NCBI GenBank assembly: GCA_965197425.1
Contig: CBDANC010000014.1
Coordinates: forward strand, 288,001-352,000
From: Bdellovibrionales bacterium
GTDB taxonomy: Bacteria > Bdellovibrionota > Bdellovibrionia > Bdellovibrionales > JAUICD01
DNA length: 64,000 nt
Direction of reading: 5' to 3'
In this document: one piece after another, positions 57,722-58,551 of the stretch
Position numbering within the stretch: position 1 is the stretch's first letter
Layout: each line of letters begins with the position of its first letter
Program-made: the position numbers and the translations under genes
Notes under the pieces: generated by a model
The model's database searches: none
What the model was told of the DNA's origin: nothing
What the model saw: the letters and a program-made list of their open reading frames with translations, nothing else

Positions 57722-58126
57722 AAGGTCTTCCGAATCAAGCTAAAAATAGATTGGTGAAATGCAGGACAAAGTCCAAATGTAACCAAGACATTTTTTAGCT
57801 TGAGGGTTGCCCAGCTCTGGACACGAGGCTGATCCCATCACTAAGGTGAGGTTAATGAAGCTAGAAACAAGGTGACTTGTTGCCTTTTTCTAGCTGAATG
57901 CCTGTTCCCTGGTGAACACGATGCCGATCCATTTGCTAAAGGTCTTCCGAATCAAGCTAAAAATAGATTGGTGAAATGCAGGACAAAGTCCAAATGTAAC
58001 CAAGACATTTTTTAGCTTGAGGGTTGCCCAGCTCTGGACACGAGGCTGATCCCTTTGCTAAAGGTCTTCCGAACGAAGAAAAAAACAAGGGGGCCATCGC
58101 CTGATCCCCGCTTGCCTGATGCTGGA
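57722..58126 (+). repeat. Modular hairpin repeat array (3 units plus a partial fourth) ending in 8-bp periodic motifs
   Basis: 57722-57836 is identical to 57939-58053, with a different hairpin unit between them. Confidence 0.93.
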
Positions 58127-58420
58127 TCATGTATTCTTACACAGTTTGTATAGATATCCTCCTAGTATACTTGCTTCTTCTATTAGGTTTTTGTGGTTTA
58201 TGATTTCTAGTATTGCTTGTGTTTCTCTGAGTGACCCTAGGCTTATTGTATGGAATCTTCTTCTTTCTTTAACTGTTGGTCTGGAACTTCCTTCTGCTAA
58301 ATTGAGCACAATGCTTAGTATAGCTCTTTGGAATTGGTTCCTGAGTGGTTCTTTCAGGTACAGGTTCTTAGAATTATTATAAAATTGAACTGCTAACTGA
58401 TAAGTTCTAAAATTTTTCAT
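58127..58420 (-). CDS. Four-helix-bundle protein (23S rRNA IVP / Avd-like family), second copy
   Basis: 74 of 97 residues identical to the 22784..23098 product by manual alignment. Confidence 0.88.
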   Translation of the reverse strand: MKNFRTYQLAVQFYNNSKNLYLKEPLRNQFQRAILSIVLNLAEGSSRPTVKERRRFHTISLGSLRETQAILEIINHKNLIEEASILGGYLYKLCKNT

Positions 58421-58428
58421 AATATGTT

Positions 58429-58501
58429 GTCTCCTTTTTTAGAAAAAATATTTGCTCCATAGTTTTTATCTGGGGGGAAATATTTTTTAAAAAAAGGAGA
58501 C
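58429..58501 (-). promoter_or_regulatory. Long hairpin covering the SD of the four-helix gene
   Basis: gtctccttttttagaaaaaatattt pairs with aaatattttttaaaaaaaggagac. Confidence 0.65.
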
Positions 58502-58503
58502 CA

Positions 58504-58551
58504 TCGCCTGACTACCTGTTTGCCCGCCTGCCAGAATGCCTGTCTGCCCGG
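58504..58551. repeat. Six degenerate 8-bp tandem units
   Basis: tcgcctga ctacctgt ttgcccgc ctgccaga atgcctgt ctgcccgg. Confidence 0.75.

Follow-up and report, generated by a model that had tools for sequence, protein, structure and literature searches.

Proteins of the IVP family were discovered in the intervening sequences of 23S rRNA, and the function of their stand-alone copies has been an open question ever since. Pneumococcal BOX elements and bacterial MITEs are modular, non-coding and intergenic. The ORF-bearing 23S element of Coxiella is described as having heptamer repeats ahead of its ORF and a 28-bp terminal stem (PMC4990558). The family PF05635 has been linked to the DGR protein Avd (PMC10053308), all five protomers of which are described as contacting one stem-loop of the element's own RNA (10.1101/2023.10.23.563531). 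We compare with these systems a 64,000-nucleotide stretch of a Bdellovibrionales genome (the window, G000:C14:288001-352000). The genome, G000, is 1.60 Mb in 15 contigs and 99.4% complete, and its congener G001, which is of similar genome size and of which 1.6 Mb was examined, served as the empty-site reference. Octamer doublets (below) were counted across 31 genomes (G000, G002, G004, G026 and 27 others), and presence of the PF05635 family was surveyed over 151 genomes of the bacterial class. Contig C9 of G000 is possibly bin contamination, and contig C10, which carries phage-like genes, is under the same suspicion; a C9-encoded protein resembles a eukaryotic piggyBac-type transposase.

Two genes of the four-helix-bundle family (23S_rRNA_IVP / TIGR02436) lie on the reverse strand of the window. 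That at 58127..58420 encodes a protein of 97 amino acids with a pI of about 10; the second copy, at 22784..23098, has no hairpin leader, and its 3' end enters a terminator-like hairpin (22786-22816), by which it gains seven codons. As the initial annotation had claimed, the two ORFs are paralogues (74 of 97 residues identical, ungapped) and both belong to the IVP family, with PF05635 scores of 56 and 59 bits against a cut-off of 33.8 and the TIGR02436 cut-off passed as well. The genome-wide count that it had proposed as a check gives 19 gene copies plus two short 3' fragments by tblastn, and 19 matches by the family profile, with octamers linked to the gene throughout the genome; this is the largest G000 protein family that is missing in G001. 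The 97-residue protein is the sole ORF of its cassette and has no recognised catalytic motif. Its predicted structure has four helices (pLDDT 94.8), and the top Foldseek rows for this model are two structures of the S23 family, 2RLD and 2GSC (E about 0.003, none below 0.001; TM 0.57-0.81), with Avd ranking below them (4DWL/8UB7, TM about 0.65); phmmer relates the protein to 2GSC at E 0.0019. By analogy with 2GSC and Avd we infer a homopentamer, and the protein is predicted to form an Avd-like pentamer.

The repeat units that arm these genes read RTCRGGCA (an octamer) on the gene-sense strand, and other copies carry heptamer units, ATCYGGS. Octamer-like units are present at all six places where they had been noted, among them 58097-58126 (two units and a phase break) and 34426-34441 (two units only). 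With two mismatches allowed, the window contains four runs of at least three in-phase octamer units (at 23119-23150, from 43573, at 47179-47210 and at 58504-58551), compared with none in each of 20 shuffles, and G000 as a whole contains 38 arrays of at least three units, compared with 0-2 in five shuffles. The 5' arm of the 58127..58420 gene (58504..58551, reverse strand) consists of six in-phase RTCRGGCA-like units on the gene's strand; its 3' arm (58097..58126, reverse strand) is a short degenerate octamer array that begins at the stop codon and repeats the 5' arm in direct orientation (score 35, compared with 19 for the inverted orientation and 25 at the 99th percentile of the background). 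The 22784..23098 gene has a 5' arm of four degenerate units (23119..23150, reverse strand), which lies 1-2 nt after the CCA end of the tRNA-Trp gene directly upstream (23152-23227). Over the 21 sites in G000, strict patterns applied to the 200 nt upstream find 111 units in sense and 9 in antisense orientation, where the background is 0.28 per 200 nt per strand; in the 150 nt downstream they find 39 and 24. Every one of the 19 copies has a same-strand 7/8-mer arm on its upstream side. At least two upstream units are present at 18 of 19 copies, and at least two downstream units, making a 3' arm, at 12 of 19; similarity between the flanks exceeds the 99th background percentile in direct orientation at 8 of 19 copies and in inverted orientation at 2 of 19. 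Antisense arms that face convergent neighbours amount to a weak trend only.

The 58127..58420 gene also has a 73-nt palindromic leader of type T1 (58429..58501, reverse strand), whose 3' arm carries the Shine-Dalgarno sequence 8 nt before the ATG and which is predicted to hide that sequence; its fold has a z of -3.8 on the mRNA strand and -5.6 on the opposite strand. A hairpin containing the Shine-Dalgarno is found at 14 of 19 copies, in two types of seven copies each, and in the long type the antisense strand folds better in all seven (G-U pairs 12 vs 2). Three copies and one remnant, all without hairpin and start codon, are broken at the same short direct repeat. The leader of the G002 copies is 98.7% identical, compared with 76.5% at synonymous sites. 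Head-to-head pairs of diverged genes surround one leader-like palindrome in G025, G026, G073, G094 and G108, and the long leader may be a vestige of such a pair. At loci L004, L006, L015, L024, L157, L162, L167, L195, L196 and L197 the paired genes are about 45-60% identical and share one long palindrome, each arm of which bears a Shine-Dalgarno. An Rfam search of six loci returned no row at the gathering score and four rows at chance level.

All 21 sites are junctions of protein or tRNA genes, and none is in rRNA. At 16 of them the cassette and the gene upstream share a strand, no neighbours are shared among copies, and convergent junctions are over-represented (10 of 21 cassette sites vs 220 of 1410; P 6e-4). 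The arm often starts at or near a stop codon, and in two cases directly after the CCA end of a tRNA. Among 13 loci of relatives that were picked for a tRNA-like end, the arm adjoins a tRNA 3' end in nine (Glu, Ser, Asp, Gln, Leu; one Glu locus is counted twice); in a tenth, tRNA-His lies about 100 nt further on. Single gene copies with a heptamer array directly against a CCA end are found at L007, L010, L164, L166, L170, L173, L175 and L176, where the tRNA genes and the genomes differ. Selection against other positions could be a partial source of this 3'-end pattern.

Collinear flanks are present in G001 for 17 of the 21 sites, the other four having no collinear pair, and G000 is 233-2319 nt longer at 16 of the 17 and shorter at one. 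The nuoA-rplS gap that holds the 58127..58420 cassette exceeds its empty counterpart in G001 by about 800 nt; in that genome neither tblastn nor the profile finds the gene and no arrays are present over the 1.6 Mb examined. Filled and empty orthologous sites thus exist, a comparison that does not by itself prove polarity, and at 74% identity the G000 and G001 flanks are too diverged to define a target duplication or fixed ends. We are much more confident that the cassette is one discrete unit, acquired or lost as a whole, than we are of any role for its protein. Broken derivatives are dispersed too, some without start and hairpin and some interrupted by a module. Among the joints listed for the contigs of four sequencing runs (40 further joints are not shown), none skips the 58127..58420 cassette and none marks a polymorphic or newly inserted copy, a result that carries no weight as to whether such joints are absent; a close relative in these contigs shares the 5' end of the cassette. 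Metagenome matches comprise 13 loci, none of which is syntenic with G000 in the eight flanks inspected.

Among the relatives, the PF05635-family gene is patchy, being found in 46 of 151 genomes with 1 to 19 matches. The initial annotation had suggested testing co-occurrence across related genomes, and octamer doublets do go with the gene: there are 72 in G000, 119 in G002 and 101 in G004, all three of them rich in the gene, and 0-1 in two gene-free kin. G026 has five, all on the contigs of, and beside, its genes, and the 27 other genomes have 0-1, yet G021 and G025 are among those with many genes of the family and 0-1 doublets. The claim that gene and octamers are one unit is supported by the same-strand upstream arms, by G001, which has neither, and by the way in which the octamer follows the gene among relatives. 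One clade unites the 13 intact copies of G000 and another the nine of G002 (100/99 each); the nine of G004 do not group in this way. Mean pairwise dN/dS is 0.12 in G000, 0.067 in G002 and 0.12 in G004, and between the closest copies it is 0.04, a low value that fits selection after insertion, through either host benefit or poisoning of shared oligomers. The invariant residues are kept in 13 of 13 intact copies, a measure that is partly circular. Divergence at four-fold sites is 0.49 from copy to copy, compared with 0.57 from G000 to G001; the copies are therefore old, and what looks like expansion could instead reflect loss in G001 or gene conversion.

Octamers without the gene had been placed at the edges of hairpin-repeat loci and were thought to be possible footprints of the system. 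The placement holds at 43573-43604 only, 5 nt from the hairpin mosaic at 43322-43568, where three octamer units are followed by leader-like sequence in a gene-less remnant (43573..43630, forward strand). At 47179..47210 (reverse strand) a pure octamer array, which is missing at the G001 site, lies just past the stop of a cystathionine-synthase-like gene and adjoins only a 9-nt mosaic head motif, and at 34426..34441 (reverse strand) a weak two-unit site, possibly a decayed remnant, has no mapped mosaic within 300 nt. The footprint idea fares better and suits most of the 16 gene-less sites: leader-like sequence follows in 10 of 16 (against a background of 0.6%, an excess that is overstated because the leader signature was chosen post hoc), and two sites retain pieces of the gene, one the first codons and the other the last ten. 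The remaining six are pure arrays, which would fit deletion between direct arms. To judge from their sequence, the gene-less arrays look like deletion remnants. GTAGGG-type REP-like hairpins stand beside three gene-less arrays (G000:C12:110440-110560, C12:125690-125730 and C13:83850-83950); G000 has no RAYT match.

The cassette carries no transposase or recombinase of its own. Profile searches gave no match in G000 to PF01797 (Y1_Tnp) or PF00078 (RVT_1), with 31 genomes searched, or to PF00589 (Phage_integrase) or PF01548 (IS110), with five genomes searched, and tblastn of eight Y1 proteins from relatives against G000 gave one 17-residue match only; G002 likewise has no RAYT and no RT match. 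G000 does have one DDE_Tnp_1 gene and one resolvase gene. Matches to DDE_Tnp_1 number one in G000, three in G002, 54 in G004 and four in G021, with none in G001. The resolvase, which has an orthologue in G001 and no flanking repeats, was considered as a mobiliser and rejected, resolvase loci of G000, G001, G002, G004 and G021 being without consistent flanking by arms or modules. There are 186 ORFs found in G000 only, and the family libraries covered part of them. PF00589 matches are absent from both G000 and G001, so XerC/XerD are apparently missing or very divergent in both.

Several other features were seen in passing. The window has a RelE/Gp49-like and HTH gene pair at 34540-35173, likely a toxin-antitoxin module, which is not in G001 and has a paralogue at C15:376679-377283 of G000; a 70-nt repeat in three tandem copies (1735-1944), flanked by genes for a Fic-domain protein and an acyl-CoA dehydrogenase; and small lipoprotein-like ORFs, three tandem paralogues without a Pfam match, at 26687-28461. 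A palindromic repeat of 18-nt period (core GTGGATACTCCAC) occupies 45 G000 sites on C6 and C12-C15, partly within large ORFs and once within a hairpin mosaic, and is not in G001. G001 has a CRISPR-like array of 36 repeats with a 66-nt period (G001:C1:469210-471555).

The hairpin repeats form mosaics, one of which, with three modules and no assigned strand (57722..58102), adjoins the 3' arm 28 nt from the 58127..58420 ORF; this gene does, as first described, abut a repeat array. G000 has 171 mosaic loci (a count that supersedes 95 from anchors), five of them within four-helix-bundle genes and two deep in other ORFs. The other window loci are 8441-8513, 16089-16233, 21749-21890, 25014-25388, 39722-39940, 43322-43568, 48271-48584 and 59021-59288, and a relative has joints that skip window 48275-48529 and 60226-60440. 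Mosaics are found in 12 of 37 junctions with the gene or a remnant vs 136 of 1373 other junctions. The raw odds ratio of 4.4 was not accepted, since with junction length matched 6.8 are expected, which leaves a 1.75-fold enrichment (P 0.03). The converse count is that 136 of 148 mosaic-bearing junctions lack any part of the cassette, and mosaics do not have the cassette's preference for convergent junctions. About 38-40 homogeneous mosaics are present in G001, which has neither gene nor arrays; they belong to a family that looks related, and their median best identity is 90%. Five of seven syntenic G001 mosaic sites also hold a mosaic in G000. At present, then, mosaics are not dependent on the gene.

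Modules are nevertheless nested in the gene. A 66-nt CAATTG module has 53 copies (superseding 28 from a strict pattern), of which 45 are in mosaics, three are alone and five are in frame at one site in four-helix-bundle genes; these five genes are not one clade (at least three changes are forced), and three share one variant. Another module, at one site near codon 65, breaks five G002 genes and five G004 5' halves, and at least eight G004 gene 3' halves follow a module. All nine intact G002 genes have a same-strand module head 52-106 nt downstream, and at several genes half a head is fused to the 5' arm. A same-strand head lies within 300 nt downstream of 15 of 36 G002 array sites vs 0.76 under circular shifts, and one is near 13 of the first 14 array sites, usually directly downstream; in G002 arm and hairpin head are thus combined in a single composite repeat (L222-L254 among the loci), with about 460-490 heptamer doublets (control 0) and 397 heads for 15 gene matches. 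In G004, one of ten genes tested has a same-strand head downstream. The proposal that mosaics belong to the same system as the gene therefore divides: in-gene modules and the G002 fusion speak for it, while the 136 cassette-free junctions and the gene-free mosaics of G001 speak against it, and the suggested co-location test succeeds for octamers and gives 12 vs 6.8 (P 0.03) for hairpin units. The mosaics probably constitute a modular family of their own, of BOX/MITE type, that inserts into the cassette and next to it, travels with it and, in G002, has become joined to the cassette's arms. We read cassette and mosaics as two families nested in each other and merged in one lineage; IS elements are described as targeting REPs in a parallel way (PMC1525189).

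Copy number, anatomy, the empty sites in G001, one clade under purifying selection, the enzyme-family negatives and the deletion remnants are the observations to be explained. The reading that we prefer, at evenly balanced chances, is that of a selfish, transposase-free cassette: its protein would work on the cassette's own arms or leader in single-stranded form and favour their capture by host enzymes. The cassette comprises a repeat arm, a Shine-Dalgarno hairpin, the four-helix-bundle gene and often a second arm. Read-through from the upstream host gene would transcribe it, with the hairpin keeping translation low; the basic, putatively pentameric protein would attach to the arms or leader of its own source copy while these are single-stranded; and it would assist host recombination or repair in capturing that strand at the 3' ends of genes and tRNAs. 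The G000 copies would then have arisen by insertion in their own lineage and not by G001 loss, and deletion between direct arms or AT-rich microhomologies would have produced the gene-less arrays. We hold more tentatively, as possible and no further, a wider idea of a class of mobile element in which an Avd-like ring, as the sole protein, recognises the periodic 7/8-mer arms on one strand and makes host enzymes capture it, no transposase, integrase or reverse transcriptase being involved; the rRNA intervening sequences, like DGR Avd, would be domesticated special cases; the hundreds of gene-less arrays in G002, the head-to-head pairs elsewhere and a fixed-site parasitism by resident hairpin modules would all be part of it. 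A host-useful RNA-binding family, grown by duplication and conversion, in which arms and leader are autoregulatory or read-through-transcript sites with no part in mobility, is unlikely. It would account for the purifying selection between closest copies, the near-invariant leader, the co-orientation with upstream genes and the site common to a close relative; a family useful to its host fits poorly with presence in 46 of 151 genomes, no shared neighbours, many dead derivatives and a similarly sized congener, G001, that lacks everything.

It is decidedly unlikely that the protein multiplies arms and hairpin modules together in one integrated RAYT-like system, with the modules as its non-autonomous derivatives. 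The gene-free and array-free mosaics of G001 (90% median best identity), the length-matched co-location of 12 vs 6.8 in G000, the mosaics' lack of a convergent-junction preference and the single G004 gene of ten with a downstream same-strand head all weigh against this, whereas G002 speaks for it through its 460-490 doublets (control 0) and 397 heads for 15 gene matches, its heads downstream of 9 of 9 intact genes and at 15 of 36 arrays vs 0.76, and its lack of a RAYT or RT match. A further point in its favour, that five of the eight G000 CAATTG modules outside mosaics sit at one in-gene site in genes that are not one clade, is weakened in that these copies could reflect one to three events followed by copying or conversion. 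Very improbable is an intervening sequence at the mRNA level, whose arms would pair into a stem for excision by RNase III as in the 23S rRNA elements. The precedent is the Coxiella 23S element, whose terminal stem spans 28 bp and whose ORF is preceded by heptamer repeats (PMC4990558), and some downstream units in G000 are antisense (24 vs 39 sense); flanks, however, are inverted at 2 of 19 copies and direct at 8 of 19, the arms of the window copy (58127..58420) are direct, and the sites are intergenic with none in rRNA. RNA processing as in 23S intervening sequences, which the initial annotation had entertained, is not supported because the arms are mostly direct. The least probable account has a conventional enzyme moving the cassette in trans as passive cargo, be it the single DDE transposase of G000, the resolvase or one since lost. 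It leaves dN/dS values of 0.07-0.12 unexplained, no terminal inverted repeats or target duplication were seen (with G001 flanks too diverged to fix the junctions), and the resolvase is orthologous in G001 and without flanking repeats; in its favour, DDE_Tnp_1 is present in G000, G002, G004 and G021 and absent from G001, and REPs are described as able to outlast their transposase gene (PMC6006769).

G000 offers a candidate ligand for the protein of the proposed selfish cassette, namely the RTCRGGCA/ATCYGGS arms with the constrained leader hairpin; binding and mobility can be tested directly, since G001 serves as a control with empty sites, dead derivatives are at hand and the arms are multiplied in a relative. 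If the protein does drive spread, this would be amplification of a gene and its repeats without known mobility enzymes, and an origin for Avd would be explained.

Set beside the described systems, the cassette has most in common with the 23S rRNA intervening sequences of Coxiella and Leptospira, with which it shares the S23p protein family, short tandem repeats just before the ORF, a poor or hidden ribosome-binding site and a patchy distribution with apparent horizontal movement (as described in PMC4990558). It differs from them in the scatter of its 19 copies, all of which lie between protein and tRNA genes and not in rRNA, in its mostly direct arms with no terminal stem enclosing the ORF, and in its added Shine-Dalgarno hairpin, deletion remnants and nested modules. 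With DGR Avd, which binds a stem-loop of its own RNA, it shares a basic protein and, in the predicted model, the four-helix fold (10.1101/2023.10.23.563531, PMC10053308), but G000 has no reverse transcriptase match and many stand-alone copies. The REP/BIME and RAYT (TnpA-REP) systems resemble it in having few repeat-flanked genes and many gene-less repeats (PMC6006769), and in their mosaics and the use of palindromic repeats as insertion targets (PMC6006769, PMC1525189). In contrast to these, G000 has no Y1/HUH match, the cassette gene itself multiplies, the arms are periodic 7/8-mers and not GTAG hairpins, and the protein has no recognised catalytic motif. The hairpin mosaics alone are like BOX elements and MITEs, being modular, non-coding, intergenic and without an identified cognate transposase. 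On the tested features, then, the cassette is not an rRNA intervening sequence, a DGR, a REP/RAYT system or an insertion sequence. Our literature search, the coverage of which excluded supplements and most subscription journals, found no account of repeat-armed stand-alone IVP-family copies. What is new here is the direct arms, the whole-genome census of empty sites and enzymes, and the two-way nesting of cassette and hairpin modules.
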